Position numbers and translations under genes: made by a program
The notes under the pieces: model-generated
The model's database searches: none
The model's input: only the letters and a program-made list of their open reading frames with translations
Told to the model about the DNA's origin: nothing
Shown: in pieces, positions 17,566 to 41,159 of the stretch
How positions within the stretch are numbered: position 1 is the stretch's first letter
How the letters are laid out: each line of letters starts with the position of its first letter
Assembly: GCA_965223265.1 (NCBI GenBank)
Contig: OZ244999.1
Coordinates: forward strand, 2,208,001-2,272,000
Origin: Planctomycetota bacterium
GTDB taxonomy: Bacteria; Planctomycetota; UBA8108; SXIK01
Length of the DNA: 64,000 bases
Direction: 5' to 3'

Positions 17566-17656
17566 GATCAATTCACCCCGTTTTGCGGGAAGTCAACAGA
17601 CGCGGTCGACACTGGCGCGCCGGCCTCGTAGAGGAATTAGCGTAAAGAGGAAGAAG

Positions 17657-22840: not shown

Positions 22841-24566
22841 GGCGAATCAAGAAGCGACTCGGATGGTGGAGCGCTTGGGCGCGACGCGCCGAAAGCCGCC
22901 TTCGAACGCCGTCGTCATCGAGCTCGGTGGGGCGTACTTGCGTGCCGTCGAATGTGCGCGTCGCGGCAAGAAAGTCGTCGTCACCCGCATCGTCACGGAA
23001 CGCTTGCCCGCGGATCTCATCTCCCAGCGCGATCCCGCGGCCACGGGTCGCTGGATCGCGAAGACGCTCGCGCCGTACAAACTTCCTCTCAATCAAGCCG
23101 TGATAGGCATCCCTCGCAGCCATGTCTTCTTGAAGCCGATCTCTCTTCCCCCTCCTGGGGATATGCATGAGCTTGCGTCGATGGTTGTTTTTCAGGCGGC
23201 GAAAGAACTGCCGTTCGCGGTCGAAGAGGCAGTGATCGACTACACAGTGCAGAGTCACTTCGATATTGTTCCGGCGACTGAAGGCGATCTGGCGGAGGAA
23301 GCTACCGGGCGCGTAGCCAAAGAGACCATTGAGAACCGTGGCTCCCGCAGCGGCGAAGGAACGGATGGCGCAACCGAGACGGTGCGCGTGCAGGTTCTCG
23401 TTGCTGCCGTTCGGCGCGACGTTGTGGACGAGTACAAGGCCATCGCCGCCGCGGCTCACTGTAAGCTGCGTTCGCTGACGCTCAGATCGCATGGAAACGT
23501 TCGAGCGATCGAGCTCTGCGAGGGGCGTCCGTCTGGCAGCGTCGCTCTTGTCCACGTGCGCGAACGAGAGCTGATCATCGACGTTTTGGACGACGGCGAC
23601 CTGGCGTTTAGCCGAGCGATCAATTTGCCGGCCGCTGCCGCGCCGGACGCCAGCGCTGATCGCAACGACGCTGTCGTGGAGCTTGCGAGTCGAGAGATCC
23701 TCCGCAGTGTGCGGAGCTACCAGGCGCTTGAGACGCGCGGTACATTGACGAAGGTTGTCGTCGTCGGGGAGGAGGAAAGAGCGACCGAACTCGTCGAACG
23801 CGTTGGAAGTCAGTTGGGCATCCCGACGTCACAGCTCGACCCAGCCCAACCACTTGGGCTCAAGGGCGAGGACGCAAAGAAGGCCCAGGGGTCGGTTGCA
23901 GCCATCGGACTCGGTATAGGGTTCCTCGATGGGCGTGGCCTCCTGTTCGACTTTCTACACCCGAAGAGAGTTCCGCCCAAAGTGAATTGGCGCCGACGCG
24001 CACGCGTTGGGGCGATCGTGCTCGTCGTGGCGACGTTGGCTGGGCTTTTCTTCGTGCGGTCACATTTTGTCGGTCAGCTCGATCAAGAGCTCAACCAGGT
24101 TCGTTCGCAGCTTTCGTCTAGAAAGGCGCTGAGACAGTTCAAGAGGGACGAGAAGAGCGCGCTCGAGATCGAACGCTGGATCGACGGCGACTATGGATGG
24201 CTTGATCAAATCGCCGACTTGAGTCGTGTCCTCCCCGATTCCGATGCGGTCTACGTCGACAATCTTGGCATGAGCGCGAACGGAAAGATCCTCGTGTCGC
24301 TCCGGGCTCGTTCCGGCGAACTTCCCGATGAGGTGTATCAGCGTTTCAAGAAGGCGGGGTATCACGTCAGCCCGCCCTCAGTGACGCCGTCGCGTGATGC
24401 GCACGGCTACGGCTTCAAGACGACCGTCGAGCTCACAGCTCGTCCGAACGAAAAGAAGAGAGCCAAACTAGCAGCGCTCACTTCACCGGTGCGGTCATCT
24501 AACGCTGTCAAGGCGACCAACGAGAGCGTCGATCCTGAGCTGGCAGGGAAGGAGTCACCAAAGTGA
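22827..24566 (+). CDS. PilM-like cytoplasmic domain + TM + PilN-like domain (GspL equivalent)
   Basis: ELPF...AVIDY, VLVAAVRR, FSRAI, AAIGLG motifs of PilM, then TM and periplasmic region. Confidence 0.8.
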   Translation: MTSREANQEATRMVERLGATRRKPPSNAVVIELGGAYLRAVECARRGKKVVVTRIVTERLPADLISQRDPAATGRWIAKTLAPYKLPLNQAVIGIPRSHVFLKPISLPPPGDMHELASMVVFQAAKELPFAVEEAVIDYTVQSHFDIVPATEGDLAEEATGRVAKETIENRGSRSGEGTDGATETVRVQVLVAAVRRDVVDEYKAIAAAAHCKLRSLTLRSHGNVRAIELCEGRPSGSVALVHVRERELIIDVLDDGDLAFSRAINLPAAAAPDASADRNDAVVELASREILRSVRSYQALETRGTLTKVVVVGEEERATELVERVGSQLGIPTSQLDPAQPLGLKGEDAKKAQGSVAAIGLGIGFLDGRGLLFDFLHPKRVPPKVNWRRRARVGAIVLVVATLAGLFFVRSHFVGQLDQELNQVRSQLSSRKALRQFKRDEKSALEIERWIDGDYGWLDQIADLSRVLPDSDAVYVDNLGMSANGKILVSLRARSGELPDEVYQRFKKAGYHVSPPSVTPSRDAHGYGFKTTVELTARPNEKKRAKLAALTSPVRSSNAVKATNESVDPELAGKESPK

Positions 24567-25558
24567 CGCGTCGCGAACGTATGCTTTTCAGCATCGTCTG
24601 TACTTTTGTGGGTGTCGCGTTCTTCGGCGTCGGCGTGAAGAAGTTCGTCGTTGATCCGCTGAAAGAGAAGAAGCAACAGATTGGAGTGATCAGTTCGCGC
24701 CTCGGTGAACATAGGCGAGCGAAGAAGCGAGCCGCGAATGCGAGACGAAGGATGGTCAACGTTGCGTCGCGGACCTACGCCGGTAGCCTCGACGAGGCGC
24801 AGGCCCGTTGCGGTCGAGAGATCAGCGAGCTGTTGCGGGCGGCCGGGCTCGACGAAAGTGTGTTCACGCGCAGGCCGGTTCGACCGAGTCGCGTCGGCTC
24901 GGAGGCGTTCGAGACCGGATGGACTCTCCGCGGCGTGGGGCCTCTAAAAAGTCTCGTAGACTTCCTGTATCTCCTCGATTCCGTGCCCTACGCCAGCAAG
25001 ATCGAAAAGTTGTCGCTCACTCCGAGCGATCGCGTCACCGGATCGATCCATTTTACGTACCTCACTTTGGCGCTGCCGAAGAAGTGGCGCGACGGTGTCC
25101 CGCCAATCGACAGGCAGCCGCCTGCGTCAGCGTTGGCGACAGCTGAGCGCAAGGCATACGACGTCATCACGGGGCGCAACTTCTTCGCGCCGTTCGCCCC
25201 AACGCCAGAGCCGCCACCGGTGCCCGCGCGTGATCCTGTCGCGGAAGAGCGTGATCGTTTGGCGGCGTTTAGGGTCGTGTCACTTTCCGAGTGGAAAGGT
25301 ACGCCCGAAGTCATGGTCCTCGATGTGGAAAAAGAGAGCACAGAAAAGTATTATCCTGGGGACACTCTCGCCGGCGGTGAAATCTTAACCATCGATTACC
25401 GCGCGCTCCCAAATCCGGCGAAGCCCGGGATGACTTCGATTAGTCGGGTCATTATTGGGGCCGGCGCCGAGTTTTGGGCGATCGAAAACGGCGCGACGCT
25501 CGCCGAACGCCGTCGCCTTAAACCCGAAGATCTTCCGTCTGGCCTGCAGGGTCGTTGA
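24563..25558 (+). CDS. GspM/PilO-like protein with C-terminal GspC-like domain
   Basis: MTRRERML + TM + coiled coil, LVDFLYLL..KIEKLSL (PilO-like), then YDVITGRNFFAP and a beta-rich tail. Confidence 0.65.
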   Translation: MTRRERMLFSIVCTFVGVAFFGVGVKKFVVDPLKEKKQQIGVISSRLGEHRRAKKRAANARRRMVNVASRTYAGSLDEAQARCGREISELLRAAGLDESVFTRRPVRPSRVGSEAFETGWTLRGVGPLKSLVDFLYLLDSVPYASKIEKLSLTPSDRVTGSIHFTYLTLALPKKWRDGVPPIDRQPPASALATAERKAYDVITGRNFFAPFAPTPEPPPVPARDPVAEERDRLAAFRVVSLSEWKGTPEVMVLDVEKESTEKYYPGDTLAGGEILTIDYRALPNPAKPGMTSISRVIIGAGAEFWAIENGATLAERRRLKPEDLPSGLQGR

Positions 25559-25695: not shown

Positions 25696-28600
25696 TTGAG
25701 CTTGAGAAGAACCGTCTGCCTGCTTTGCGTTCTCCTGTTGACCACTCGCACCCCGTTTGCTGACGAGACGGGGGGCGACTCTCAGCCTAAAAAGCCGACC
25801 GGCGACACGTCCGCAGGCGAGGCGGCGAATTCTGCTGCCCCGACTTCGCCAGAGAAGCACAGCGACGCGGCAAACGAGACTGCAGCGGAGAAGGACGCCT
25901 CCAAGAGCGAGCGCAACATTCGCTTTCAGTTCAGCGGCATTCCCTACGCTGACGCGGTGCGGCGTTTCGCTGATATGGCCGGCAAGCCTCTGGTGGGGGA
26001 GGTCAAAATCGACGGCCTGCTGACCTTCGCGGATGAGCAGGCCTACACGTACGATGAGGCACTCGATACGCTCAACGTGATTCTTGCCATGAAGGGGCAC
26101 GTGCTGGTCGAGGCCGGTCGCTACCTACGGCTAACGACGAAGGACGAGCTGCCGCAACTACCGCTCGAGATCTTGTACGGCACGAAGCGAACGGGAGACA
26201 AGCGTCCAGGCCAACTGGTGACGGTCGTCTTTCGCCTCAAGCACCTGGATGCCAACGAGACGGCGGTGGCTGCGAGCAAAATGCTTTCAGGCGCCGGGTC
26301 CGTCTCGCCGCTGCAGCGCGGCCGCGGCTTGGTTGTCACCGACGCACTCTCGACGATTCAGCGTATCGAGGAGTTAATTCTCGAGCTCGACGTCGAACAG
26401 CAGGGTACGCGGTCACTGAAGACGTTTCGCCTAGTGAATTCGTCCGGCGCTGTGCTCGGCGAGATGATCCAGCGAACTCTAGGGTCGGAGACTGCACCGC
26501 GCGAGGCGCGCTTCGTCAACAACAAGTGGGAGGTGGCTCCACCTGATCCCGAGCTTTTTGTCACCGTCACCTACGACGAGCCGACGCAGACGCTCGTCGT
26601 CTTCGGGCCGCGAGATCTTCTGAAGTTGGCGGAGGAACTCGTGACGCGCTTCGAGAAGGAAGGCGGCGATGAGGGTGAGCTTCGCGTCTACACGCCGCGC
26701 GTGTTGAAGGCGGAGACTCTCGCGCCCATGATCCGGCAAGCCGTACCGGGAATCGCTGGAGAGAGTGATAGCGCGGCGCAGGCGAGCAACAAGGCCCGCC
26801 TTATCGTCGACGCGCAGTCGAATCGTCTGATCATTTCCGCGCGCGTCGGAGAACAGATGCAGCGGATTGAAGAGTTCCTCCGCGTTGTGGACCGTCACGA
26901 ACGAGAGGCGAAGAGTGACAAGGACGACGATGGAGACGGCGGCCCGCAAAGTCGCGTCCTGCCCATCGCCACGGCTTCGTCAGCAGGAGTCATGGAGATC
27001 CTCCGCTCCGCAACGACCGAGCGCGATCGCGATGGCAACGTGCTGCAGCGACTTCACGTCGCTTTTGACGCTGAGACGAAGGCGTTGATCGTTTCCGGGT
27101 CGAAGCACTACGTCGAGCTCGCCCAGCGTCTCGTTCAGCAGCTCAACGACGCGGCGACGAGCACGAGTCCACGGCAGATGCGTTATCTCGACTTGACAGG
27201 AAAAGTCGCCGCCGCCGACCTTCCGAGCACAGTCACGCTGTTGCAGCAGCTCGTGAGACAGCAGCTGGGCACAGGAGCCGGAGATGCAGGAAGTGTCACG
27301 ATGACGCCCGCGCCGAATCGCGCTGGAATCATCGTCACGGCTTCGTCGGAGCACCTAACCACGGTCGAGTCGACACTGGCGGGATTGCTCGAGACGGCCC
27401 CCAAGCGTGAAGCACGCTCTCTCCGGGCCATCGTTTTGCGTCACGCGCGGGTTGACGACGTGATGTCGACGCTTCAGAAACTCACCGATGATGCTGCGCG
27501 TGACCGCTGGCCGGTATCGCCGCCCTCATTGGTTGCGGACTCTCGCGGCAACCGGATCCTCGTGACTGGCACCATGGAGCAGCTTGAAGCCGTCGCCAAG
27601 TTGACCGCGGAGCTCGATCATGCCCCGGTGAGGACCTCCCGGACGGTGCGCCGCGTTGCCGTGCGGTCCCATCGCCCCTCAGAGTTAAAGCCTCTGCTTG
27701 ACGCTTTCTTACGGCAAGAGTTCTCGGGTCGCGGTGCTAAACACCCGCTGCCTGAGGTCTTCGTCGACGACGTCGGCCGCCGCCTGATTGTCTTGGCGGA
27801 GTCTGACGATCACGCCCCGATCGAGGCGATGATCGGCGAGCTCGACGCGAAAGAGGTGCAAGTACGGACCACGCGCGCCCTCGACCTGAAAGCGCGCCGA
27901 GCCGCCGAGATCTTGCCACTTGTGAAGAAACTTTACGACGCACAGGTAGGTCAAGGGGGGGACGGGCGAGCTCCCAGCCTTGACGCTAGCGGCGACGGCA
28001 AGCGTCTCCTTGTCACGGGCACCGACGAAGAGATTCAACGCATCGAATCGATCGTGCGTGCGCTCGACGTCGCCGAGCGCCCGGAGATCGAGCGCCAAAC
28101 ACGGGCCATTCCCGTGATCGCGCGAGAGGTCGACGCCTTTCGCTCGCTGGTCGAGCAGCTTTACACCGCGCAGCGACGCGGGCAGCGTCCGCCACCTGGA
28201 GGAGCGACGACGATCGTCGCCGATCCGAAGAGCCGAAGGCTCCTCGTCACAGGCGCGGCAGAGGAGATTGCCCTGGTCGAGTCCATCGCCCGACAGCTCG
28301 ATCCGCATGAAGGGAAAAGCGAGAGACCCGAGACTCGCGTCTACAAGATCGGCACCGCGAACGCGACGGAGCTCGTGGGACTGTTGGAACAGACGCTGAA
28401 TCAGGATCCCGCGCGACCTGCGGCTCGTGTTTTGGCGGACGCTCCGAGCAACCGTTTGATCATCACCGCTCCCCCGTCCGTCCTCGACACCGCCGCCGCC
28501 GTGATCGAGGAGCTCGATCAGAAATTCGATCAGCAACCGCGTGAGCTTCGTATCGTCGAGCTCGACGTCGGCGACGCTGACGAGACCGCGGCGCTGGTCA

Positions 28601-31600
28601 CGCAGCTTCACGGCGAGCGCATGCGGAGCCTTCGTGGCGGGCGGTACCAACCGCGCGCGAAGATTCTCGGCGACCGGTCGACGAATCGGCTGATTCTGAC
28701 CGCGGGAAGCGATGAGATGAAGGTTCTCGACGAGATCGTCTCGCAGCTCAACCGCGTCGATCGGAAGGAGGAAGACTCGCGAGTCTTTCGGCTGGAGCAT
28801 GTCAGAGCCGAGCAGATCGCCGACGTGGTCGCGACTGCTATGACGACGTACGACGATCGTCGGCGCCCAGTCGAGCGCGTCCGGGTGGCGCCCGACGCCG
28901 CGACGAACAGTCTTGTGATTTCTGGCAAGACGAGCGATCTGGAGCTGGTCGCTTCGGTGGTGCAGCAACTCGATCGCGCCGACTCGCGCGGCAAGGTGGG
29001 GGTGCGAGTTGTGGAGGTCGACAGTGACCGAGCAGCGTCGGTGGCTGCAATGGCGGAGCGAGTTTGGGGTGAACAGAACCGGGATGCTCAGGGGGCCGAC
29101 GCCCTGGCGGTGACAAGTCGCGGCGGGCGAGTGGTGATCGCTGGACCGCAGAACGTTCTCGGACCTGTCGCCTCGCTCGTTGAGGAGATCGGCGCCCAGG
29201 TGACGAGCGCGCCGCGGCGTCTCCGAATGGTCAAGCTCGAGAACGGCTTGATCGCCGCTGATGCGCTGCCACTTCTCAAGCAGAGCTACGATGCCGAGAC
29301 GCGCGGTACCGCCAACGGCGATGCGACGTTTCGCGTCGACGCCGCCGGCAACCGTCTCCTCGTGATTGCCAGCGACGCCGAGTTCGAGATCATCGGCGAA
29401 ATTCTCGCGACGCTCGGCGAGGGGATTCGAACCGCCGAACGCAAGACGCGCATGTTTGAGTTCGCCGGCGCCACGGAGCTGACTCGCGTCGCGCCGCTCG
29501 TTCGCCAACTCTACGAACAGGAGCTCAAAGGTAGCGCTGAGCTCGGCCCACCTGAGGCTCAGTTTATCGAGGATTCGCGTGGCGCTCGGTTGATCGTCAC
29601 CGCGTCTGAGCCTCACTTGGAACGCGTCGCGTCGATCATCAGCCGGCTGGATGCCGAGGAGGGTTCAAGCGCCCAGCGTCGGCGCGAGACGCGCACGTTC
29701 AGTTTTACGACGGACGCAGAGCTGAGACAGACGCAAGATCTCGCGCAAAAGTTGTACGCCGCCGAACTCGAGGGTCAGCGCCCACCCGCCGGCGGTGAAG
29801 CGACGTTCACTGTCGACGCGGCAGACCGGCGTCTTCTCGTCACCGGGAGCTCGAGCGAGCTCGATCGTGTCGAAGCGATTTTTGCTCAGCTCCGCCGCGA
29901 CGCGGCGCGCGATCCGCGGCGCACGACCAAGTCACTCGAAGTCCACGCCGAGCGAGTAGGCGATGTTTTGGAGCTGCTACGAACGGTGTACCAGGCGCAG
30001 CTCGCGGGTGGCGACACTCCGGTTGGCGGTCCTGCCACGATCGTCGCCGATGCTAAGAATCGCCGACTTCTGGTCACTGGGGACGATATAGAGCTGGCGA
30101 AAATTGAGGCGCTGCTGCGACAGCTGGACCCTGCCGACGCCGAGCGGCAGGGAATCGGGACGCGCATACTGCGAGTGCGATCGGTGGCCGCTGCGGACGT
30201 TTTCGGTCTGGTCGAGAAAGCGCTCAACGGAGACCGTGAAGTGCCTCTCGTTCGACTTCAACTGGACCGTGAAAGTAACAGTATCGTCGCCACTGGTACG
30301 GAGTCGGCATTGAAGCTCACTGCCGAGATCGTGAGCGAGCTTGACGATGATCCTAGATCCGGTCCGCGCGAGCTGAAGGTGATCGAGCTCGAAGTTGGCG
30401 ACGCCGACTCAATGACGACGACGCTGAAGCGGCTCCACGAAGAGGCCCTTCGTTCCCAGTTCGGCCTCAACTACCGATCACGGGCCAGTTTCATCGCGGA
30501 TGCCGCCAACAATCGCGTCATCGTCACCGCTCCTCGCGACGAGATGGAAGCCATCGATCGATTCGCAGAGCAGCTCAACCGAGTCAGTCGCAAACAGGAA
30601 GACTCGGTCGTGATTCCGCTCAAGCATGGCCAGGCGTCGCGACTCGCCGAGATCGTACTGCGTGCGATGACGGTGTACGACCGCCGCAATCGCCCAATTG
30701 AGCGTGTGAGGGTTGCTGCCGACGATGCCTCGAACAGCCTCGTCGTCTCCGGCGCGACGGCTGATCTCGAGGCGGTTAAGGCGTTTATCGCGGAGCTCGA
30801 CTCTCCGCTGCAGCGGCCGCCGCTGTCGCTGCGCATCCTCCGTTTGGCGCGACCGCATGCAGACCAAGTCGCGTCGCTTGTGCAGAGAGTCGCGAGCGAA
30901 CACCAAGCCTCCGTCGGCCGCGACGCCGTCATTTCGGTTCAGCCGTCAGCCGATCGCCGCCGCGTGATCGTCGTCGCGCCGAAGGCAGAGATGGAACAGA
31001 TCGCCGGTCTCGTCGTCGAATTCGACAAAGCCTCGTTTGACACGCCGAAGGAGCTCTATGTCGAGGAGCTGACACATGCGAGAGCGCAGGAGATTGCGCC
31101 ACTCGTGCAGCGAGCCTACGACGATCAAGAGCTTGGCGCCGATCACGGCGCGGTGATTCGAGCCGATGCGCTACTCAATCGTCTTCTCGTCTTGACGCAC
31201 GCAAGCCAGATCGATCGTGTCCGCCAGATCATTGCGAAGCTTGATGTGACCAGCGATGAGGATCGAGAGACGCGCTTTTTCAGGCTTCGCGACGTCGACG
31301 AACTCGGACAACTCCACGTGCTCGCTGAGCGTCTTTATCGTGAGGAGATGAAAGGGAACGGTCCTCGCAACCAAGCCGACGCCCAGTTTATCCGGGACGA
31401 CACGAACGTGCGGTTGATCGTCACCGCGCGCGCGTCGCACATCGAAAAGATCGCCGAGATCCTCGACCGATTGCGGACAGGAAGCGATCGCGACCCACGC
31501 CAGGAATCTCAGATTTTCGCTCTTGCCGACTCCTCTGAGGTGAGCCGGCTGCTGCCACTCCTGCAGCGGCTCTATCGACAGGAGTTCGAGCATCAACCCG

Positions 31601-34600
31601 GCGGCGCAAGCGCTGAGTTCATCGCCGACGCCGAGGCGCATCGAATCATCGTCTCTGGTCCTCACGCTCACCTCGAACGCGTTGCCGAGCTTCTGTCGCG
31701 GCTGCGGGCAGAGACTGCGCCTGACGCCGAGCGTGAGCTACAGGTCGTGGAGCTTGATGCCGCTGACGCCGACTCCGCCGTACCGCTCGTTCTGGAGTTG
31801 CTGCGAGACCTGATGCAGAACCGGCGCGGACCGGGATACCGTGTACAGGCACGAATTGTTCCGGACGGCGCGAGTAATCGTCTGCTCGTCACGGCGCCGG
31901 AGCACGAGCTCGCCGAGATACGCAAAATCGCTGCCTCGCTCGACGCTGAGCGTGACGACCCGGAGCCTGAAACGCGTGTCTACGATCTTGAGACAGCGAT
32001 CGCCTCGAGCTTGGCGGAGACCGTGCGGCGGCTGTACGAAGAACGCTCCGCAGCACGAGGCGCGAAACGCGTCGGACAGGTCATGATTCTCTCGGACGAG
32101 GCGACGAACCGTTTGGTGGTCACTGCACCTGCCGACGAATACACGGTCATCGAGGAGATCATCGAGCGCCTCGATGCAGTCAGCAAACGAAGCGCCGGCA
32201 CGCGTATCTTCAAGCTGAAAACCGCCGATGCGCAGCAACTCGCGACGATTCTCTCCAGCTCGCTCACTCGACGCGTTGGCAACCGCCAAATCCCGCGTGT
32301 CAGCATTGGCGCCGATCGCAAGACGAACACTTTGATCATTTCGGGTGAGCCCGACGATCTGCAGGCGGCAGCGTTGATCGTCGAAGAGTTCGAGGGAATG
32401 GACTCCGAGGCACCCGCACTCTTGCGAGTCTATGAAGTCAAAGAGGTCGACGCCGGCAAACTGCGTTCGGATTTGGAGAGACTCTACCGCCGGCAGGCCG
32501 AGAATACCCCGAATCTCGGAACGGATGCACTCTTCCATGCTGACTCGGCGACCAACCGGCTGTTCATCATCGCTACGCAGGAGGAGCTTGTACGGATCCA
32601 CGAACTGATCGGACAGCTTGACGTCGACCAGGGACCGGACACGCGCCAGCTGCGCGTTTTTACCGTGAGTCGTACATCTGCGGCGTCAGTGTCAGCAATT
32701 CTGCAGCAGTTTTTTGTCGAACGCGCGCAGGGCAGCCACGCCGAACGCGTCCGCGTCTCGGCGTCGCCGGACGACCGCACGATCGTCGTCAACGCCCCAG
32801 CCGCGATACTCGAGCGCATAGAATCGCTTGTGACCGACCTCGACGGAGAAGGGCGATCGGATCAGCTTGTCTACCGGTCGTACCAACTAAGCGACGGCGA
32901 TGCGTCCATCCTCGCCCCGAAACTTGAGCGACTTTTTGCTCAGGAGCTTCAGACACCGACGACAGAGCCGCAGGCACGCTTCGAGGCTGACGTGACTCTG
33001 AATCGTTTACTTGTCGCGGCGAGGGTCGATGAGCTCCCAGAAATCGACCGTTTGGTGAACGAGTTGACCTCGAACGCGCAGCTCTCGTCTCAGGTGCAGA
33101 CGATTCTCCTGCGGGAGAGTAGCGCCACCCAAGTCGTCTCCGTTTTGAAGGAGCTTTTGGCCACTGAGAACAAAGAGCCTGAAGGTGCCCAGGCGCTCAG
33201 GGTCTCAGCCGCTCCAGCGCTCAATGCCGTCGTCGTGCATGGATTACCGCAGCGTATGGCGTTCGCGCGGGAGCTCATCAAGAGCCTCGATCGAGTGCCG
33301 GAAGGCGGCAAAGCCGTTGTGCAAACCGTCAAGCTCAACAGTGCCGAGGCTGTCGGTCTGGCTGCCGCGGTGTCGCAGGCTATCGAGGCACGCGGCTTGA
33401 GCGACCGCACGCGTCGCGTGCGCGTCACCGCAGAGCCGAACTCGAACAGCATCCTGATCGATGGGCCACGCGACGAGGTCAACGAGGTCATAAGAATCAT
33501 CCGAGAACTCGATTCGAGTGCGCGCGGCGGCGGCATCGACGTGCGGATCTACAAGCTTGAAAACGGTCAAGTGCGTGAGGTCTCAGCGACGATGCGGACG
33601 ATGCTCGATCAGATCATTCAGCAGCAGGTGCAGCGTAACCCGGGCATGCCGCGACCACCGTTCGTCGTCTCGGTCGACGAGCGCACCGAGACACTCATCG
33701 TGTACACCACTCCACGGCATTTTCCGATCGTCGAGCAGCTTCTCACGAACCTCGACAAGGCCCCGGAGCGCTCGGCGCGCACCGTTCACTACGTCGCGCT
33801 GGAGAATATCGATGCTCTTCGTGCCGTGCGACAGCTCGAAGCTCTCTATCTCAATCAGAGCTCCGGCGAACGTCCCGTGATCGAAGCCGACTCGCTCGAC
33901 AACTCCCTCACGATCATCGCGAAGACAGCGGATTTGGACGCGATCATCGATCTCGTCGAGCAGCTTGACGCCGCGGCGCCATCGAGTGAGATTCAAGTTC
34001 GTGTCGTACCGCTTGTACAGATGCCGGCGGACCAGATGGCGAGCATGCTCATCAGTCTCTACTCGCAGATGACTGAGAGCGAAGTGCAGCTAAGCGAGAG
34101 ATTGCCGCCCCGTGGAGGAGACGGAGTCTCCCGTGCCACAGACGGACCCACCGGGGCGCCGCCAGTGTCGCCGAGATCGTCCGAACCGTCGGTCACAAAC
34201 GGCGCCGACGAGGCAACTGGAGGAGCAAAAAAAAAAGAGGCTCCCGAAGATACGAACACCGGCAGGGACGGCGGATCTCAGGGGCGTGGAGCTGACACTG
34301 GTCGTGGCGAGTCAGGGGCCGGAAGTGCGGCGCCTGGAGAGCCGGCGGCGGGCACGGAGAAGCAGTCAGGCGACTTGGCGCCACCGTCCGATCCTGCTCG
34401 TCCGGGGGTGACAGAGGCACCCTTGGCTCCGGCGGATAGCACAGCGGATGACCGCGATCCGACGAGCGGGGATGCACCACCGACCGGGGCACGCCGAGGC
34501 GACGATGCGAGGCAAGAGGAGGCAGAGACGCCCAGCCACGCCAAAGTGTTTCTCGCGGTCGACAAGAGTGCCAATGCGATCCTCCTTTCCGGCCCGAGGC

Positions 34601-37600
34601 TGGAGCTCGACGTCATCGAGGAGCTCATCGAGGATTTGTCGTTCAACTTCGTCACCGGAGACGCCGAGTTCCGGTTCTTTCGAATCAAGCATGGCAACCC
34701 GACAGCGATCGCGACCGCTCTGGACAACCTCTTCAATTCGAAAACGCCGCGCGTGATCGATCCACGCGGCTTCGTTCAGTTGCCGCCGCCGGTGATTCAG
34801 ATCGCTACAGACCGTCGCCTTCGCAGTGTGATCGTGCGGGCTACGCCTGCAGACTTCACGTTGATTGAATCGATTATCGAGCAGCTCGACAGCGAGGGGG
34901 CGATGTCTGAGCTGAGGTTTCGGTCGTTTCCTCTGCAGCACGCTGACCTTGATGAGATCTTCCCTACGGTTCAGCAGCTCGCCGAGGAGCTTCAAGCCGA
35001 GAACCCTGGCGAGCCGGTGCGACTGGCGATGGACACGAGATCCGGGGCGATCGTGATTGCCTCGAGACCTCAGATCATCCTTCAATTCGAGCGCTTGATT
35101 CAGACAATCGACCGACCATCGACCTACTCCGCCGCCGAAGTTCTGCTCGTGCCTTTGCGTCAAGCCGATGCTGGCGCCGTCGCCGCCGTTTTGCAGCGCA
35201 TGCTGCAGCCCAGTCCGGGGGCGACCGCGACTCCAGCGGCGCGTGCTCTCCAGGAGCAGGTGCGCCAGTTGAGGATTCGTGACTCCGAGGGCGTGCCTGT
35301 GCTGCTTGATCTCTCGGAGCCGATCAAGATCATGGCCGATTCTGCCGCCGGCCAACCCGGTGGCAATCGACTGATCATCACTTCAACGCCTGGAAATCTG
35401 CGGGCTCTTGAGGCGGTCGTGCAGCTCCTCGACACTGTACCGATCGTCGACGGTGTGAGCGTTCGCCTGGTCAAGCTCAAGCGAGCCGATGCCAACACCG
35501 TTAGCCAGATCGTTCGTGACGTATTCCAACAGGGAGTGCGACTCGGTCTCGGCAGCGCGGGGCCGGGACAACCGGAGTCAGAAGCTGGCCGTGCGTTGAC
35601 GCGTCCGCTGAACGTTTCTGCTGATCGCCGGACCAACACGTTGGTGCTGAGCGGGCATCACGCTGCAGTCGCGCTCGCCTTAGGACTCATCGACGACATG
35701 GACCAGGCTGGGGATCTTTTCTTGACAGAGGTGAAGCTCTTTCCGCTGCGCTACAACTCGGCGCAGCGTCTTTTGCCGCTTCTGCGCTCGGTGTTCTCAG
35801 AGTCTGGTGCCACGCCTGGATCCGAAGGTGTCAGCACCCAGGTCACGCGTCTGCGGACTACCATGCCACAGCTTGAGCCCAAGACGACGGAAGTCGCAAA
35901 GGCGCGCGCACCCCTCACGATTCAAGCCGATGGCGCATCGAATACATTGATCGTTGCAGCGCGTTCGGACAGCATGCCGCTCATCGCCGACATCATCGCG
36001 ACGCTCGATATCCCGGCCGCTGCTCGCTTCGAAAACGTCCGCATTTTTCCTCTGGTGAACGCCAGGGCCCGCGACCTGCAGCAAATGTTGAGCGATCTCG
36101 TGCGGACCTCGACGGTGAGTCCTGCAGATCGACCATCAATCAGTGTCGACCTGCGAACGAACGCACTCGTTGTGGCCGCCTCGGAGCAAGGATTGGTCGT
36201 CATCAGACGGCTTGTCGAAGAGCTGGATCGAGAAGTGGTGGACGGCGTGGAAATGGTGGCGCTGCCTTTGAAGTACAACGATGCGCTTCAGGTCGCGGCC
36301 TCGCTGCGACAACTTTTCAACACGCGCCGCCGCGCGGTGACGCTCGGGGGTGGGCAGGCAGACCCTCGTGATCGAGTGGACGTCCGCGCCGATCGCTTCA
36401 CCAACTCACTTCTCGTCGTCGGCACGAGCGAGAACATCGAGCTTGTCCGGCAGATGCTACTGGATCTCGACGCCGAACCAACGGCCGAAGGGGGCGTGCT
36501 GCACATCTTTGTTCTTCAGCACGCAGACGCGCAGCGCGCAGCGACGATGCTCCGCAATCTGATCCGCCAGGGGCTTTATCGTCCAGGGGCCACATCCGGC
36601 GGCGCACAGGCGACGCGGGAACGTATGGCCGTCACGATCGACCCGCGCGTCAACGCGCTCATCGTTTCTGCTAGTCCCGAAAACTTGGCGATCGTCAAAC
36701 AGCTTGTCGGCCAGATCGACCGTGAGGAGTTTGCCGGTGTTGCTGGAGTCAGGCTCTTCAAGCTCAACCATGCATCCTCCGCTCGATTGGCTCCGATTCT
36801 GCAGCAGTTCTTTACGGCGCGGCGAACAGGCGAGGCGACGGTCGGCGATCCAGAGCGGCTCGTGCCCGTTTTCTTCATGGCCGACAGTCGGACGAATACG
36901 CTGCTTGTGGCCGGCAGCCAAGAGAGCTTTGCCGCGATCGAGCGTATGGTGAAAAAACTCGATGTGCCGGATGTCAGAAGCAACGAGATCTTTCAGGTCT
37001 TTCATCTTCGCCAATCGAGTGCGACGCAGCTGCGCGACACGCTGGACAAGCTCTTCCTCAATCGGCCAGCCGTCCTCGGCAACGTTCCCGTGCAGCCGAT
37101 CACAATTGTTGTCGACACGTGGGCGAACGCTCTGATTGTGCGCGCGTCGGTCGATGACATGGAGATGGTGGCGTCGCTCGTCGAGCGTCTTGATATCGAG
37201 CTCACATCGAGCGGTACGAAAGTCCAAGTGATCTCTCTCGAGAAGGCCAACGCTCAGAGCGTCGCGACGACGATTCGCTCACTCTACGCCTCGGGCGGCG
37301 ACAGCGCACCGGTAGCCATCAGTGTGGACGAGCGACTCAACGCCCTTGTGATTTCTGCCGGAGAAACCGATCAGAAGCGTATCGAAGATCTTGTCCAGAA
37401 GCTCGATTCCGGATCGGTTGCAAACGTCAGCGAGATTCGCGTCTTCACTCTTGAATTCGCCGATTCGGTGCAAGTGGCAGCGCTTCTTTCTGACGTCCTC
37501 ACGAACGCACCGATCAATGACCTCAACACCAATCGCCAGACGCTTCTTCAGTTCATCTCGCAAACGGAAGACGGGGAAGAATTGATCGCTTCGGCGCTGC

Positions 37601-39279
37601 AAGAGGGCGTCGTCGTGCTTCCGGATACGCGTACGAATTCGCTTTTGGTTTCGACTCCAGTCGATAGTTTGCCACTTCTCGAACAGCTTGTGCACAGGCT
37701 CGACAGCAGTACGCCGCCGCTCGCCGCGATCAAGGTGTTCACCCTCAAGAATGCCGATGCGCGTCAGATGGCAGAGCTCCTTTTGGACATCTTTCGCTTG
37801 CGTGAACCGGGTGCGAGTGCAGCTCGGTCGATTCGCTATAGCCTTGATCGACGCGGTGGTCAGGACGAAGGCGAGCCAGATGCAGAAGGAATGCAACCGT
37901 TTGAGTCCGCTGATGACTTGGGTGTCGCGACCATCGGTTCGGCAGAGCAGGCTTCGCTTACGGTTACCGTCGACGTTCGCACCAATAGCATTCTGGTCGG
38001 CGGCAGCGAACAGTATGTCGCCTTCGCCGGGGAAATTATCGAAGAGCTGGATTCCAGTCCAGCGCGTGAGCGACGGACGCAGGTCTATCGCCTGCGTAAC
38101 GCTCAAGCGGAGAGTATACAGACTGCGCTGACGAGTTTTCTTGAGCAGAGCCGTCAGCGCATTACCGAAGCGCTCGGTGTCGAGGCTCTCGGGTCGGCAG
38201 AGCGGCAGCTCGAGGAAGAAGTCGCCATCGTCGCAGAGCCTGTCAGCAACACATTGCTCTTGTCGGCGAGCCCTCGATTTTTCGACGAAATCTACGACAT
38301 GATCGAGGAACTGGATCAGCCAGTGCCACAGGTACTCATCCAGGTGCTGCTCGCCGAAGTGACGCTCGACAGCACGAACGATCTCGGGATCGAATGGATC
38401 ACCTCGGGTGACATCGACGGCACTCCGTTCGAGAGCTCGACCGACTTCGGGGTGCCCCAAGACCTGGACACCGCCGGCGGTCTTGCGGCGTCGATCACAG
38501 GCGGCGACGTGCGGTTCCTGCTCCGTGCTTTGCAGACGGACGGGCGACTCGAAGTGCTGAGTCGTCCCCAGATCCTCGCGACCGACAACCAGCAAGCCGA
38601 GATCAACATCGGGCAAAACGTCCCTCAGATTACAGGCAGTCAGTCGACGGAGCTAGGCAGCGTCAACAACCTCGTCGAGTATCGAAACGTCGGTGTCATT
38701 CTGCGTGTCACGCCGCGGATTTCACCCGACGGTTTCGTCAAGATGGACGTCGAGCCGGAAATCAGCTCCCTCAGTAGTTCGTCGGTCGATTTTGGTACTG
38801 GTGTGACCGCTCCCATTTTCAACGAGCGCAGCGCGACGACAACGGTGAGCGTGCAAAACGGTCACACCATCATCATCGGTGGCCTCATCAGCACCTCGGA
38901 CGATGAGCGAGAGCGCAAGGTCCCGATTCTTGGTGACATTCCTTTCCTGGGGGCGGCATTCCGTAGCCGCAAAATGGAGAAGAGACGGACCGAGCTGCTC
39001 ATTATTTTGACGCCGCACGTGCTCGTCAATGTGGCAGAAGCGGATCGCATTACCGACGACAACATACAAAAATCAGGAATCCAAGGGCAGGAGAAGCGCG
39101 ATGAGATGCAGAAGGCGCTTCTTGACGAGCTGTACGACCTGAACCGACAGCGCGAGCTCGAGGTGAACCAGCCGCACGACGATGTGTCTCCCTTCGTACC
39201 TGGCTCCGAAGACGAGGAGCTGCGGCCGCTTGAGCCGACCCCGGAAGGGCTCGACATCTCACCATTCGTCGACGCGTGA
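25696..39279 (+). CDS. gspD: Giant secretin (GspD-like), 4527 aa: signal peptide, N0, about 49 Secretin_N repeats, C-terminal secretin domain
   Basis: N0 (IRFQFSG...LNVIL); repeated R-v-f-x-L...D-x-x-x-N-x-L-I-V-x-g...I-x-x-L-D units; C-domain PQVLIQVLLAEV, LSRPQILATDN, VGVILRVTPRI, IIIGGL, KVPILGDIPFLG, TELLIILTPHV. Confidence 0.93.
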   Translation: MSLRRTVCLLCVLLLTTRTPFADETGGDSQPKKPTGDTSAGEAANSAAPTSPEKHSDAANETAAEKDASKSERNIRFQFSGIPYADAVRRFADMAGKPLVGEVKIDGLLTFADEQAYTYDEALDTLNVILAMKGHVLVEAGRYLRLTTKDELPQLPLEILYGTKRTGDKRPGQLVTVVFRLKHLDANETAVAASKMLSGAGSVSPLQRGRGLVVTDALSTIQRIEELILELDVEQQGTRSLKTFRLVNSSGAVLGEMIQRTLGSETAPREARFVNNKWEVAPPDPELFVTVTYDEPTQTLVVFGPRDLLKLAEELVTRFEKEGGDEGELRVYTPRVLKAETLAPMIRQAVPGIAGESDSAAQASNKARLIVDAQSNRLIISARVGEQMQRIEEFLRVVDRHEREAKSDKDDDGDGGPQSRVLPIATASSAGVMEILRSATTERDRDGNVLQRLHVAFDAETKALIVSGSKHYVELAQRLVQQLNDAATSTSPRQMRYLDLTGKVAAADLPSTVTLLQQLVRQQLGTGAGDAGSVTMTPAPNRAGIIVTASSEHLTTVESTLAGLLETAPKREARSLRAIVLRHARVDDVMSTLQKLTDDAARDRWPVSPPSLVADSRGNRILVTGTMEQLEAVAKLTAELDHAPVRTSRTVRRVAVRSHRPSELKPLLDAFLRQEFSGRGAKHPLPEVFVDDVGRRLIVLAESDDHAPIEAMIGELDAKEVQVRTTRALDLKARRAAEILPLVKKLYDAQVGQGGDGRAPSLDASGDGKRLLVTGTDEEIQRIESIVRALDVAERPEIERQTRAIPVIAREVDAFRSLVEQLYTAQRRGQRPPPGGATTIVADPKSRRLLVTGAAEEIALVESIARQLDPHEGKSERPETRVYKIGTANATELVGLLEQTLNQDPARPAARVLADAPSNRLIITAPPSVLDTAAAVIEELDQKFDQQPRELRIVELDVGDADETAALVTQLHGERMRSLRGGRYQPRAKILGDRSTNRLILTAGSDEMKVLDEIVSQLNRVDRKEEDSRVFRLEHVRAEQIADVVATAMTTYDDRRRPVERVRVAPDAATNSLVISGKTSDLELVASVVQQLDRADSRGKVGVRVVEVDSDRAASVAAMAERVWGEQNRDAQGADALAVTSRGGRVVIAGPQNVLGPVASLVEEIGAQVTSAPRRLRMVKLENGLIAADALPLLKQSYDAETRGTANGDATFRVDAAGNRLLVIASDAEFEIIGEILATLGEGIRTAERKTRMFEFAGATELTRVAPLVRQLYEQELKGSAELGPPEAQFIEDSRGARLIVTASEPHLERVASIISRLDAEEGSSAQRRRETRTFSFTTDAELRQTQDLAQKLYAAELEGQRPPAGGEATFTVDAADRRLLVTGSSSELDRVEAIFAQLRRDAARDPRRTTKSLEVHAERVGDVLELLRTVYQAQLAGGDTPVGGPATIVADAKNRRLLVTGDDIELAKIEALLRQLDPADAERQGIGTRILRVRSVAAADVFGLVEKALNGDREVPLVRLQLDRESNSIVATGTESALKLTAEIVSELDDDPRSGPRELKVIELEVGDADSMTTTLKRLHEEALRSQFGLNYRSRASFIADAANNRVIVTAPRDEMEAIDRFAEQLNRVSRKQEDSVVIPLKHGQASRLAEIVLRAMTVYDRRNRPIERVRVAADDASNSLVVSGATADLEAVKAFIAELDSPLQRPPLSLRILRLARPHADQVASLVQRVASEHQASVGRDAVISVQPSADRRRVIVVAPKAEMEQIAGLVVEFDKASFDTPKELYVEELTHARAQEIAPLVQRAYDDQELGADHGAVIRADALLNRLLVLTHASQIDRVRQIIAKLDVTSDEDRETRFFRLRDVDELGQLHVLAERLYREEMKGNGPRNQADAQFIRDDTNVRLIVTARASHIEKIAEILDRLRTGSDRDPRQESQIFALADSSEVSRLLPLLQRLYRQEFEHQPGGASAEFIADAEAHRIIVSGPHAHLERVAELLSRLRAETAPDAERELQVVELDAADADSAVPLVLELLRDLMQNRRGPGYRVQARIVPDGASNRLLVTAPEHELAEIRKIAASLDAERDDPEPETRVYDLETAIASSLAETVRRLYEERSAARGAKRVGQVMILSDEATNRLVVTAPADEYTVIEEIIERLDAVSKRSAGTRIFKLKTADAQQLATILSSSLTRRVGNRQIPRVSIGADRKTNTLIISGEPDDLQAAALIVEEFEGMDSEAPALLRVYEVKEVDAGKLRSDLERLYRRQAENTPNLGTDALFHADSATNRLFIIATQEELVRIHELIGQLDVDQGPDTRQLRVFTVSRTSAASVSAILQQFFVERAQGSHAERVRVSASPDDRTIVVNAPAAILERIESLVTDLDGEGRSDQLVYRSYQLSDGDASILAPKLERLFAQELQTPTTEPQARFEADVTLNRLLVAARVDELPEIDRLVNELTSNAQLSSQVQTILLRESSATQVVSVLKELLATENKEPEGAQALRVSAAPALNAVVVHGLPQRMAFARELIKSLDRVPEGGKAVVQTVKLNSAEAVGLAAAVSQAIEARGLSDRTRRVRVTAEPNSNSILIDGPRDEVNEVIRIIRELDSSARGGGIDVRIYKLENGQVREVSATMRTMLDQIIQQQVQRNPGMPRPPFVVSVDERTETLIVYTTPRHFPIVEQLLTNLDKAPERSARTVHYVALENIDALRAVRQLEALYLNQSSGERPVIEADSLDNSLTIIAKTADLDAIIDLVEQLDAAAPSSEIQVRVVPLVQMPADQMASMLISLYSQMTESEVQLSERLPPRGGDGVSRATDGPTGAPPVSPRSSEPSVTNGADEATGGAKKKEAPEDTNTGRDGGSQGRGADTGRGESGAGSAAPGEPAAGTEKQSGDLAPPSDPARPGVTEAPLAPADSTADDRDPTSGDAPPTGARRGDDARQEEAETPSHAKVFLAVDKSANAILLSGPRLELDVIEELIEDLSFNFVTGDAEFRFFRIKHGNPTAIATALDNLFNSKTPRVIDPRGFVQLPPPVIQIATDRRLRSVIVRATPADFTLIESIIEQLDSEGAMSELRFRSFPLQHADLDEIFPTVQQLAEELQAENPGEPVRLAMDTRSGAIVIASRPQIILQFERLIQTIDRPSTYSAAEVLLVPLRQADAGAVAAVLQRMLQPSPGATATPAARALQEQVRQLRIRDSEGVPVLLDLSEPIKIMADSAAGQPGGNRLIITSTPGNLRALEAVVQLLDTVPIVDGVSVRLVKLKRADANTVSQIVRDVFQQGVRLGLGSAGPGQPESEAGRALTRPLNVSADRRTNTLVLSGHHAAVALALGLIDDMDQAGDLFLTEVKLFPLRYNSAQRLLPLLRSVFSESGATPGSEGVSTQVTRLRTTMPQLEPKTTEVAKARAPLTIQADGASNTLIVAARSDSMPLIADIIATLDIPAAARFENVRIFPLVNARARDLQQMLSDLVRTSTVSPADRPSISVDLRTNALVVAASEQGLVVIRRLVEELDREVVDGVEMVALPLKYNDALQVAASLRQLFNTRRRAVTLGGGQADPRDRVDVRADRFTNSLLVVGTSENIELVRQMLLDLDAEPTAEGGVLHIFVLQHADAQRAATMLRNLIRQGLYRPGATSGGAQATRERMAVTIDPRVNALIVSASPENLAIVKQLVGQIDREEFAGVAGVRLFKLNHASSARLAPILQQFFTARRTGEATVGDPERLVPVFFMADSRTNTLLVAGSQESFAAIERMVKKLDVPDVRSNEIFQVFHLRQSSATQLRDTLDKLFLNRPAVLGNVPVQPITIVVDTWANALIVRASVDDMEMVASLVERLDIELTSSGTKVQVISLEKANAQSVATTIRSLYASGGDSAPVAISVDERLNALVISAGETDQKRIEDLVQKLDSGSVANVSEIRVFTLEFADSVQVAALLSDVLTNAPINDLNTNRQTLLQFISQTEDGEELIASALQEGVVVLPDTRTNSLLVSTPVDSLPLLEQLVHRLDSSTPPLAAIKVFTLKNADARQMAELLLDIFRLREPGASAARSIRYSLDRRGGQDEGEPDAEGMQPFESADDLGVATIGSAEQASLTVTVDVRTNSILVGGSEQYVAFAGEIIEELDSSPARERRTQVYRLRNAQAESIQTALTSFLEQSRQRITEALGVEALGSAERQLEEEVAIVAEPVSNTLLLSASPRFFDEIYDMIEELDQPVPQVLIQVLLAEVTLDSTNDLGIEWITSGDIDGTPFESSTDFGVPQDLDTAGGLAASITGGDVRFLLRALQTDGRLEVLSRPQILATDNQQAEINIGQNVPQITGSQSTELGSVNNLVEYRNVGVILRVTPRISPDGFVKMDVEPEISSLSSSSVDFGTGVTAPIFNERSATTTVSVQNGHTIIIGGLISTSDDERERKVPILGDIPFLGAAFRSRKMEKRRTELLIILTPHVLVNVAEADRITDDNIQKSGIQGQEKRDEMQKALLDELYDLNRQRELEVNQPHDDVSPFVPGSEDEELRPLEPTPEGLDISPFVDA

Positions 39280-39294
39280 CGACGATTGATCTAG

Positions 39295-39472
39295 CAGCCT
39301 GTTGAAAAAGTGCTTCGAGCCGAAAACTGGTCTCTTCGCGTCCAGATCGGCTGCGGCAAACGGAGGCAATCTTCGGGCCCTCTTTTTTCGATTCTGATGG
39401 CGAGTATTGACGCGGTCGAGCTGGGCGTGAAGAGGCCAGTTTCTTCGGCCGAATGACTTTTTCAACGGGCTG
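39295..39472. repeat. MITE family 1, copy C
   Basis: Near-identical to copy B with a longer loop; CTAG on both sides (39291..39294, 39473..39476). Confidence 0.85.
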
Positions 39473-39477
39473 CTAGC

Positions 39478-39724
39478 CTCGAGTTTGGCCATTTCGCGCC
39501 GGCCTGGCCGGACGAGTTTCGCGGGGATTCAAAGGCCCTTTCAACTTTTTTGTACCTTGAAAGCCCTTGTGCATGTTCAAAAACTCCTGTCCGGCCCTTC
39601 GGGGAACGCCAGGAGCGCCGATGCCCGCGCCCGTCCTCCGCCACGACCCGAGCGGGATCGCGCCCGAGTCGTTCCTTGGCCTCGACGCTCCTGGCGCTGT
39701 CAGGCTCGACGCGAAATGGCCAAA
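39478..39724. repeat. MITE family 2, copy 1 (right IR split by the IS91-like element)
   Basis: Closely similar to 54105..54358; left IR CTCGAGTTTGGCCATTTCGCG; right IR CGCGAAATGGCCAAA continues as CTCGAG at 42250. Confidence 0.85.
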
Positions 39725-40028: not shown

Positions 40029-41159
40029 CTACCGGGAGTCGCGGAAACCGACGCGATGAAAGACGATCGCAATGACATGTAGCCGGCCCCCGCAGCACGA
40101 GCAGAAGGGATGTTCGGTGGGACTGTCCGTCGTCGTCGACGGCGCCGCCCTGGCTCCGTTCGCATCGGAATGAATCTGTGCGCCGTCGGCGGGAGGGTTC
40201 ACTCTAGCGACAAAGACTCGCACCTCGTGGAGGGAGACGGCGCTTTGCGGACTGAGGAATCCGTAGTGACGCACCTTCTGTAGCCCCCGAGGTAGGACGT
40301 GCTGGAGGAAGCGGCGGATGAACTCCAGAGCATCGAGCTCCATGGTCCGCCACCGCCGACTGCCCGACTTCTTCCAGCGAAAGCGAACGCGACCATCGTC
40401 GCAGGAGACGATGCGGGCATTGGAGATCGCTACGCGAAAGACGTAGCGTGATAGATACGTGAGTGTCGACTCGCCGTCACCGACGGCGCGCGAGTCGGTG
40501 ACGAAGTTCTCTGTCCACACCGCAGGCGCAATGTCCTTGAGAAGACCAGCCCGCTGCAGCTCGTGGCGGAATTTGGCGCGAAAGATCTTCGACAGCGCCT
40601 TGACCGGCACGAGAAAGTCGGGGCGCGAGGTGATCCAGCTCGCACCATCGTCGCTCAAGCCGCCGGCCGGCACCAACACGTGCAGGTGCGGGTGATATGC
40701 CAACGCCCGTCCCCAAGTGTGCAGAACCGCGGTGAAGCCAAGGCGCGCCGCACCGAGAAAGCGTGGATCGCGTGCGAGCTTCTGAAGCGATTCAGCGGCG
40801 GCGCGAAAGAGCGCCCGGTAGCAGGCACGCTGCTGCGAGCGCACGAAGGGTCGTAGCGTTGCGGGCAGAGTGAATGTAAGGAGAAAGTAGGGCACCTCGA
40901 GTCGATGCTGTAATTGCTCGGCGAGCCAGCGCACGTTCTTGGAGGACTGACAGCCCGGACAATGGCGGTTGCCGCACGAGCGGGGCGTCCGGTGAGAGCG
41001 AGCGCAGCTCTCGCAGCGCCAGCGCACGTAACCCAGATCGCCAGTGCCACAGGCGCTCAGCAGCGCCAGGACACGACGGTGCTGCAGAGGCACGCTGGAA
41101 CCGTGACACTCCAGATACTCCTCGCCATAGCGCGTGAAAATCTCCGCAAGCGACGCCAC
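40029..41159 (-). CDS. IS91-family transposase (Zn-binding + Y2_Tnp)
   Basis: SCGNRHCPGC, LHTWG...HPHLH (HUH), YLSRY (Y2), RRFLQHVLP..VRHYG. Confidence 0.93.
   Translation of the reverse strand: MASLAEIFTRYGEEYLECHGSSVPLQHRRVLALLSACGTGDLGYVRWRCESCARSHRTPRSCGNRHCPGCQSSKNVRWLAEQLQHRLEVPYFLLTFTLPATLRPFVRSQQRACYRALFRAAAESLQKLARDPRFLGAARLGFTAVLHTWGRALAYHPHLHVLVPAGGLSDDGASWITSRPDFLVPVKALSKIFRAKFRHELQRAGLLKDIAPAVWTENFVTDSRAVGDGESTLTYLSRYVFRVAISNARIVSCDDGRVRFRWKKSGSRRWRTMELDALEFIRRFLQHVLPRGLQKVRHYGFLSPQSAVSLHEVRVFVARVNPPADGAQIHSDANGARAAPSTTTDSPTEHPFCSCCGGRLHVIAIVFHRVGFRDSR

Follow-up and report, generated by a model that had tools for sequence, protein, structure and literature searches.

In a 64,000-nucleotide stretch of the genome of a Planctomycetota bacterium (assembly GCA_965223265.1, contig OZ244999.1, positions 2,208,001 to 2,272,000 of the forward strand; hereafter, the window), one gene encodes a predicted secretin of 4527 amino acids (aa), in which 49 N-domains stand in tandem ahead of a complete pore domain. 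Secretins are among the best-studied bacterial outer-membrane machines, and GspD, the secretin that type II secretion systems (T2SS) use, consists of an N0 domain and three N-domains in ~650 aa. The secure part of our reading, judged from the sequence, is that the gene is real and under selection and specifies a full-length secretin of the GspD type for an accessory T2SS. We further hypothesize, with about an even chance of being right, that the protein is a functional outer-membrane secretin of this system and that its oligomer, with 49 stacked N-rings, forms a channel crossing an enlarged periplasm. The 23 to 64 rings predicted for the family to which the protein belongs, versus six in PilQ, would represent an order-of-magnitude extension of the textbook secretin design. 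The gene and the parts of its product lie in the window as follows.

25696 to 39279, + strand: giant GspD-type secretin (4527 aa, 493 kDa, isoelectric point 5.05)
25696 to 25764, + strand: putative Sec-type signal peptide, residues 1-23, no lipobox (by-eye reading of the translation)
25954 to 26121, + strand: candidate N0 domain, residues ~87-142 (sub-threshold PF21305 match)
26227 to 38316, + strand: array of 49 Secretin_N domains, N1-N49, residues 178-4207 (Pfam and a self-trained hidden Markov model, HMM)
34093 to 34512, + strand: low-complexity loop of ~130-140 aa inside N35, rich in Pro, Gly, Ala and Asp (gap between HMM half-matches at residues 2769-2799 and 2939-2981)
35146 to 38316, + strand: positionally conserved pore-proximal stack, N38-N49 (rank comparison with 128 homologues)
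38527 to 39024, + strand: secretin pore domain, residues 4278-4443 (PF00263, E 5.9e-52)
39025 to 39276, + strand: 84-aa C-terminal tail, acidic and rich in Pro, in the position of the S-domain (assigned by position)

The open reading frame (ORF) starts with TTG and continues for 4527 codons, or 13.6 kb, without a stop. The putative signal peptide ends at a cleavage site read by eye, MSLRRTVCLLCVLLLTTRTPFA/DE, and the whole protein has only two Cys residues (8 and 11). At the other end, the pore domain is complete (positions 1-168 of the 169 in the PF00263 profile), and residues 4431-4527, which include the tail, have no Pfam match at E values up to 10. The GspD model TIGR02517 gives 1231 bits against a cut-off of 351, a total inflated by 23 repeated N-domain stretches; its best single stretch pairs profile positions 126-600 of 600 with residues 3974-4453. 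The scores on the PilQ (TIGR02515; 447 bits) and SctC (381 bits) models are both lower than that on the GspD model.

Between the two ends, the Pfam family Secretin_N (PF03958) is found in 39 stretches (whole-protein E = 0, 1172 bits). An HMM that was seeded with one repeat and iterated on the giant secretin itself until convergence finds 51 matches, two pairs of which are the halves of loop-split domains, leaving 49 domains. The same HMM has no match in 50 shuffles of the protein or in its reversed sequence. Among the 17,713 ORFs of the genome (stop-to-stop, ≥150 aa), it detects only four secretins, with 51, 6, 3 and 1 matches, and one 337-aa ORF with two. An earlier note on this DNA, made from the letters alone, had counted about 49 units at about 26210-38320, and both count and coordinates prove essentially exact. 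The intact secretin C-domain that it described is likewise borne out, as is, on reading by eye, its signal peptide, and the Pfam count it called for gives the 39 Secretin_N stretches and a single Secretin domain. Its one N0 domain holds up in part. The PF21305 match (residues 87-142, E 2e-4) scores 21.6 bits, below the cut-off of 27, whereas phmmer aligns residues 88-332 with residues 14-248 of Escherichia coli GspD (PDB 5wq7; E 5.7e-4), a stretch that spans N0-N2. PF21305 is also listed in the precomputed domain lists of many homologues.

To assess the fold of the repeats, we predicted the structure of N26-N28 with AlphaFold2 from an alignment of 95 non-overlapping tri-domain windows (12 from the window protein and 83 from nine orthologues). 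The model has a mean predicted local distance difference test score of 90.0 and contains three β-α-β-β-α units, the last helix of a unit ending 1-8 residues before the first strand of the next. When compared with the PDB using Foldseek, it has 37 matches at E ≤ 1e-3, and the top eleven are all T2SS secretins (GspD, ExeD, EpsD, PulD and XcpQ; probability 1.00). At the level of a predicted structure, the secretin N-domain fold is thus confirmed for N26-N28, as the earlier note's assignment of the repeats to Secretin_N required.

The array is not uniform along its length. We matched the 49 domains one by one against all domains of 128 homologues. For N38-N49, the best match mostly keeps its rank, or nearly so, when ranks are numbered from the C-terminal end, and median identities are 41-64%; for N1-N37, the rank is not stable and the median best identities are 27-44%. 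Pairwise BLASTP alignments divide the protein in a similar place: the segment from ~2950-3045 to ~4480 is 41-55% identical in seven of nine homologues, Verrucomicrobia-labelled ones included, and the front part is 24-30% identical to homologues. This two-part conservation suggests a fixed pore-proximal module and a length-setting distal module. Within the conserved stack, loop insertions have expanded N38, N39, N40, N47 and N48 to 80-107 aa. The loop inside N35 has no Pfam match at E values up to 10; a similar insert occurs ~1600 aa from the C-terminus in closer homologues only. The loop is lineage-specific, in that gaps of ≥60 aa are absent from 71 of 129 family members. We considered it as a conserved hinge and rejected that role, both for this reason and because only 7 of the 58 gap-bearing members have their largest gap 1450-1700 aa from the C-terminus.

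The spacing between domains is far more constant than the domains themselves. Among 5025 well-defined linkers in the 128 homologues, 97.6% are 8-13 aa long, 90% fall within 9-11 aa and 56% have a length of exactly 10 aa; in the window protein, 41 of 44 well-defined linkers are 9-12 aa. Because this strict ~10-aa spacing persists through deep divergence, and because the predicted connectors are short and partly helical, these data argue for an ordered, rod-like stack over beads on a floppy string.

The full length of the gene appears to be under selection, as judged from the open 13.6 kb, from codon-position GC values that stay at ~0.7/0.45/0.7 (GC1/GC2/GC3) in every 1.5-kb block, so that the coding signal is uniform along the gene, and from frames of 3474-5073 aa in nine other genomes. 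The repeats share a mean pairwise protein identity of 21-26% at every offset (~24% overall), and the sole visible block duplication is an ancient one of eight domains (N9/N17, 49%; N12/N20, 55%). On these identities the repeats are old.

The earlier note had implied that such a protein is rare, which is wrong. Using residues 4120-4527, the pore region, as the query, we scored 1459 candidates of 2489-7923 aa, of which at least 745 protein clusters match at E ≤ 1e-3. The best 120 of the 745 have lengths of 2490-6165 aa and pore regions that are 49-66% identical. In these 120, the window protein included, the repeat HMM counts 23-64 N-domains (median, 42.5), and length correlates with domain number (r = 0.97). 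With more than 20 Secretin_N domains, the conserved 12-domain stack and linkers of ~10 aa, the window protein has the features by which we recognise the family, and by these comparisons it is a mid-range member among hundreds, in a family with up to 64 domains and 6165 aa. Where any of the 120 are named, they are labelled "secretin N-terminal domain-containing protein" or "type II secretion system protein D" and come from metagenome-assembled genomes of Planctomycetota, Phycisphaerae and Verrucomicrobia. The earlier note's remark that long planctomycete secretins occur in annotations without functional characterisation fits the at least 745 clusters of ≥2489 aa, for which we found no study. 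Literature searches returned no description of giant secretins of the Planctomycetes-Verrucomicrobia-Chlamydiae (PVC) group, subscription journals and supplements being outside their reach, and the phrase "secretion system" occurs 0 times in the accessible text of a 2025 review of the phylum. Secretins and the T2SS are already known, and this extreme variant is known from database annotation only; new here are the pore-proximal rank conservation, the regularity of the linkers and the absence of the locus from the five nearest relatives searched, described below.

Within the phylum, 399 of 401 sampled genomes have a secretin domain. At least 10 of the 401, the window genome included, have secretin frames of 3474-5073 aa, the next longest being 1413 aa (among the best 150 of 2277 rows). 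Each of the nine other giant loci has one long ORF with 31-50 N-domain matches, and the phylum survey also places more distant giant secretins in family f45. In the five nearest relatives searched, of which two belong to the family of the window genome, one to its order and two to its class, no secretin match, of 39, exceeds 1143 aa. Gene order around the giant secretins is partly shared. The order gspE, L-like gene, giant gspD recurs in genomes G117 and G269, the same order surrounds the giant secretin of G172, and the GspE proteins next to these three secretins are 67-68% identical to that of the window; the best GspE paralogues in the nearest relatives are 45-49% identical to it. Four of five genomes searched (G117, G269, G382 and G155) have an L-like homologue directly upstream of their giant secretin, and in G382 and G155 the best GspE match is elsewhere, not beside the giant secretin. 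The operon has a GC content of 0.619 versus 0.608 for the genome, with no signal of transfer. As a control, the leucyl-tRNA synthetase is uninformative, being 46% identical in a same-family genome and without a match at E 1e-50 in G117, G269 and G172. The patchy distribution of the locus is compatible with horizontal transfer or with repeated loss.

The giant secretin is the final gene of an operon with the order gspE-F-G-H-I-?-K-L-?-D, in which the nine upstream genes are on the same strand and mostly overlap or abut.

14626 to 16293, + strand: GspE-type secretion ATPase, first in the operon (PF00437 T2SSE, E 1e-138; PF05157 MshEN)
16133 to 17518, + strand: GspF inner-membrane platform protein (PF00482 T2SSF, two stretches, E 3.8e-53)
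17537 to 18175, + strand: GspG major pseudopilin (TIGR01710, 89.6 bits against a cut-off of 88.85; PF08334; N_methyl)
18404 to 19465, + strand: GspH-like minor pseudopilin, oversized at 353 aa (N_methyl; PF12019, E 4e-6; TIGR01708, 31 bits, below its cut-off)
19462 to 20094, + strand: GspI-like minor pseudopilin, a weak assignment (NF047828 XpsI, E 3.4e-6; TIGR01707, 23.4 bits against a cut-off of 44)
20091 to 21452, + strand: 453-aa ORF in the GspJ position (gene order alone; no Pfam or NCBIfam match)
21449 to 22840, + strand: GspK minor pseudopilin, 463 aa (PF21687 T2SSK_1st, E 1.8e-8; NF037980, E 1e-18, 67.9 bits against a cut-off of 130)
22827 to 24566, + strand: GspL/PilM-like platform protein, 579 aa (PF11104 PilM_2, E 3e-14; TIGR01175, E 2e-18)
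24563 to 25558, + strand: 331-aa ORF in the GspM/GspC position (no Pfam or NCBIfam match)

The T2SS context implied by the earlier note is confirmed by these genes, with E, F, G, H-like, I-like, K and L-like genes directly upstream of the secretin on the same strand. Scans with Pfam and NCBIfam recognised no pilotin in the locus and likewise identified no GspJ. The 331-aa ORF is possibly PilO/PilP-like: in an ESM Atlas feature search, its nearest neighbours are unnamed PVC clusters (0.95-0.97), followed by PilO, PilP and T2SSM_b clusters (0.89-0.91), and we treat the resemblance as a lead only. The minor pseudopilins (18404-22840) are far above the usual size, and most match their family models at the N-terminus only. 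Divergent from the operon and just upstream of gspE, a gene at 12457-14523 (- strand) encodes an NfeD-like membrane protein of 688 aa.

A second T2SS-like cluster lies elsewhere in the genome (G000:C1, ~7,093,890-7,107,400). It encodes a 1055-aa secretin with six N-domain matches, with paralogues of GspE, GspF and GspK adjoining it (GspK, 30% identical). Because this second cluster is present, the giant system is additional, that is, an accessory T2SS. The 337-aa ORF detected by the repeat HMM (G000:C1:1474889-1475899) has two Secretin_N-like matches and coincides with none of the nine secretin-domain matches in the genome; it may be a free-standing N-domain protein.

How the giant protein compares with characterised secretins bears on what it might do. 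It shares with GspD of Vibrio, E. coli, Klebsiella and Pseudomonas (PDB 5wq7, 5wq8, 5zdh, 6hcg and 5wln; chain lengths, 627-646) the pore domain, the N-domain fold, a putative N0-like start and the gspE-to-L operon. It departs from their canonical N0-N1-N2-N3 architecture of ~650 aa in having a candidate N0 and 49 N-domains in 4527 aa, in a locus with no GspC or pilotin identified, and in a C-terminal tail that matches no family. To our knowledge, the largest structurally characterised secretin is PilQ of Thermus, with six periplasmic rings. Thermus thermophilus PilQ, of 757 aa, has rings N0-N5, six N-rings stacked across a wide periplasm, according to the accessible text of its description (PMC5745081), and is the closest mechanistic precedent in that extra β-α-β-β-α rings lengthen a channel. 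PilQ is part of a type IV pilus and DNA-uptake machine rather than of a T2SS, and the window protein scores better on the GspD than on the PilQ model. The Pfam matches of the window protein do not include the AMIN family, and its operon, which carries GspG and GspK, does not have the pilMNOPQ arrangement, although it contains a PilM-like gene and possibly a PilO/PilP-like one. The closest likeness is to the unstudied giant PVC secretins, which are the same family (pore 49-66% identical, shared 12-domain stack, same linker spacing) and from which the window protein differs only in copy number and lineage-specific inserts such as the N35 loop; among its own near relatives the window genome is an outlier.

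In every solved secretin, the N-domains form stacked periplasmic rings, and from this we infer ring stacking for the giant protein. We propose that it would oligomerise as other secretins do and that its 49 N-domains would stack as successive rings. The 12 pore-proximal rings would be a conserved, position-specific module, and the ~37 distal rings an extension open to evolutionary change, their number determining how far the channel reaches. At the far end, N0 would dock on the inner-membrane platform formed by the GspL-like, PilO/PilP-like and GspF proteins. Secretin oligomers contain 12-16 copies in solved cases, and a ring is ~3-4 nm high in the structures of GspD and PilQ. At that height, 49 rings would make a conduit of ~150-200 nm (a stacked tube of at least 100 nm is plausible), and a complex of 15 × 493 kDa would amount to ~7.4 MDa. 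Such a conduit would let a pseudopilus-driven T2SS operate across an enlarged periplasm of the PVC type.

Extended to the whole family, the same idea becomes more tentative. Giant secretins might be length-tunable conduits, in which a 12-ring module carries 10-50 distal rings and ring number acts as a ruler between the membranes; the sealed tubes of 100-200 nm would be the longest envelope-spanning bacterial channels known and possibly some of the membrane-to-membrane connections of PVC cells. We regard this generalisation as possible, though on balance doubtful. If the rings do stack, questions arise of how a pseudopilus piston or a cargo moves ~150 nm within a tube, how a complex of ~7 MDa is exported and assembled, and whether ring number tracks periplasm width in bacteria with an enlarged periplasm. 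Public data contain many members of the family, at least one of them in a closed genome, and the question is thus directly testable.

Several observations weigh against a stacked channel of this kind. We infer, from sequence and by analogy, both the oligomerisation and the N-domain rings, and a closed tube of ~150 nm poses mechanical questions of its own, such as where substrates enter and whether a pseudopilus could be of such length. The predicted template modelling score of N26-N28 is only 0.52, and superposition of the whole model on solved GspD and XcpQ stacks is poor (TMq 0.25-0.48; root-mean-square deviation 10-38 Å); the predicted tri-domain does not reproduce the inter-domain geometry of the known rings. 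The N0 score below the Pfam cut-off is a weaker point of the same sort, and the Pfam and NCBIfam scans identified no GspC among the operon proteins. The genome encodes eight further secretins of 546-1206 aa, so that the envelope-spanning machines of this cell do not appear to need such reach in general, and the absence of giant secretins from the five nearest relatives searched suggests that the protein is not tied to the general cell plan of the lineage.

Some of the same evidence could also fit an arrangement in which only the ~12 pore-proximal domains form rings and the distal array of each subunit remains a flexible or extensible strand, the 12-16 strands together making an elastic tether or press-stud between the outer and inner membranes, not a sealed tube. 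The drop from a rank-conserved stack (41-64%) to distal domains at 27-44% without fixed rank, together with copy numbers of 23-64, would be expected of it, as would the uncertain relative orientations in the distal tri-domain (0.52 again). Distal N-domains are, moreover, often disordered in solved secretins. Thermus PilQ is described as flexible between its rings (PMC5745081, accessible text), and in Planctopirus limnophila the crateriform complexes have been likened to press-studs that link the outer membrane with the cytoplasmic membrane (PMC5394234). In the accessible text of that 2017 cell-biology paper, the identity of the crateriform protein is not given and the word "secretin" occurs 0 times. 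The link to these structures is speculative, and because giant secretins are patchy and were found in few of the sampled genomes, they are unlikely to be the general identity of crateriform structures. A spacing of 9-11 aa in 90% of 5025 linkers is not expected of a floppy tether, and the predicted connectors are very short and largely helical, which favours a stiff rod. We consider the tether, the main rival, less likely and retain the stacked channel as the favoured explanation.

The cargo of the channel might also differ from that of a classical exoprotein T2SS. A pilus-like fibre or a polymer, such as an exopolysaccharide or a holdfast, could be guided through it, with the N-array serving as its sheath or its nozzle. 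In cyanobacteria and Myxococcus, the nozzles that release slime have been identified as secretins, PilQ and GspD (PMC12475490, accessible text), which shows secretins with non-classical cargo and a function broader than exoprotein release, although these proteins are of ordinary size, ~80-90 kDa per subunit, and have no expanded N-array. Within the operon, the PilM-like platform protein, the PilO/PilP resemblance of the 331-aa neighbour (a lead only) and the oversized proteins at the minor-pseudopilin positions (353, 453 and 463 aa) could be read in the same direction, and the second T2SS-like cluster with its 1055-aa secretin could serve ordinary secretion. However, GspG passes the equivalog cut-off for T2SS major pseudopilins, GspK, a hallmark of the T2SS, is present, and the secretin itself scores far higher on the GspD model (1231 bits) than on the PilQ model (447 bits). 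Neither a retraction ATPase nor polysaccharide genes were seen in the operon. We therefore judge transport of a fibre or polymer to be quite improbable and keep to secretion by an accessory T2SS as the working interpretation.

It is scarcely credible that the long ORF is an artefact, either of mis-assembled secretin genes or repeats or of a decaying gene from which only the C-terminal part is made: the TTG start codon and the mobile elements directly downstream would fit such an origin, and the ~24% identity of the paralogous domains, the uniform coding signal, the intact orthologues of 3474-5073 aa in nine genomes and the at least 745 long homologues speak against it. The gene contains no DNA tandem repeats, and its direct repeats are limited to three short families (38-57 nt, 63-74% identity), so that repeat-driven mis-assembly would be without a substrate. 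The genome is a single contig of 9,179,496 bases. In each of three public runs (X1, X2 and X3), one contig spans 25000-39318 with 0 differing letters and 0 gaps; these runs represent two samples of one study and are probably the source material. In a fourth contig set from the same study (X4), some bins have little or no cover, which we count neither for nor against the gene. Short contigs show a few "joints" inside the gene whose sides agree over only 20-22 letters, and we treated these as chance k-mer overlaps between diverged repeats. The possibility raised in the earlier note, that several genes had been joined in assembly, can be counted as unlikely given the diverged repeats, the single contig and the identity of the X1-X3 contigs over the gene, and the question of an assembly artefact is largely refuted.

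Mobile DNA abuts the 3′ end of the T2SS operon. Directly after the stop codon of the secretin gene, at 39292-39485, lies an element of ~195 bp with terminal inverted repeats that resembles a miniature inverted-repeat transposable element. It has ~210-380 BLASTN matches in the genome (averages over 20-nt bins), its contig depth, summed over the public runs, reaches into the thousands, and all three of the whole-gene contigs stop there. The adjoining flank (39500-39700) has ~56 matches in the genome. Farther downstream of the operon, an IS91-family transposase gene (40029-41159, - strand) overlaps a tyrosine integrase gene (41057-42073, - strand). The leucyl-tRNA synthetase used as the control above is encoded at 43762-46767; at only 46% identity to its counterpart in the same-family genome, it may be a divergent enzyme or one of a different type.

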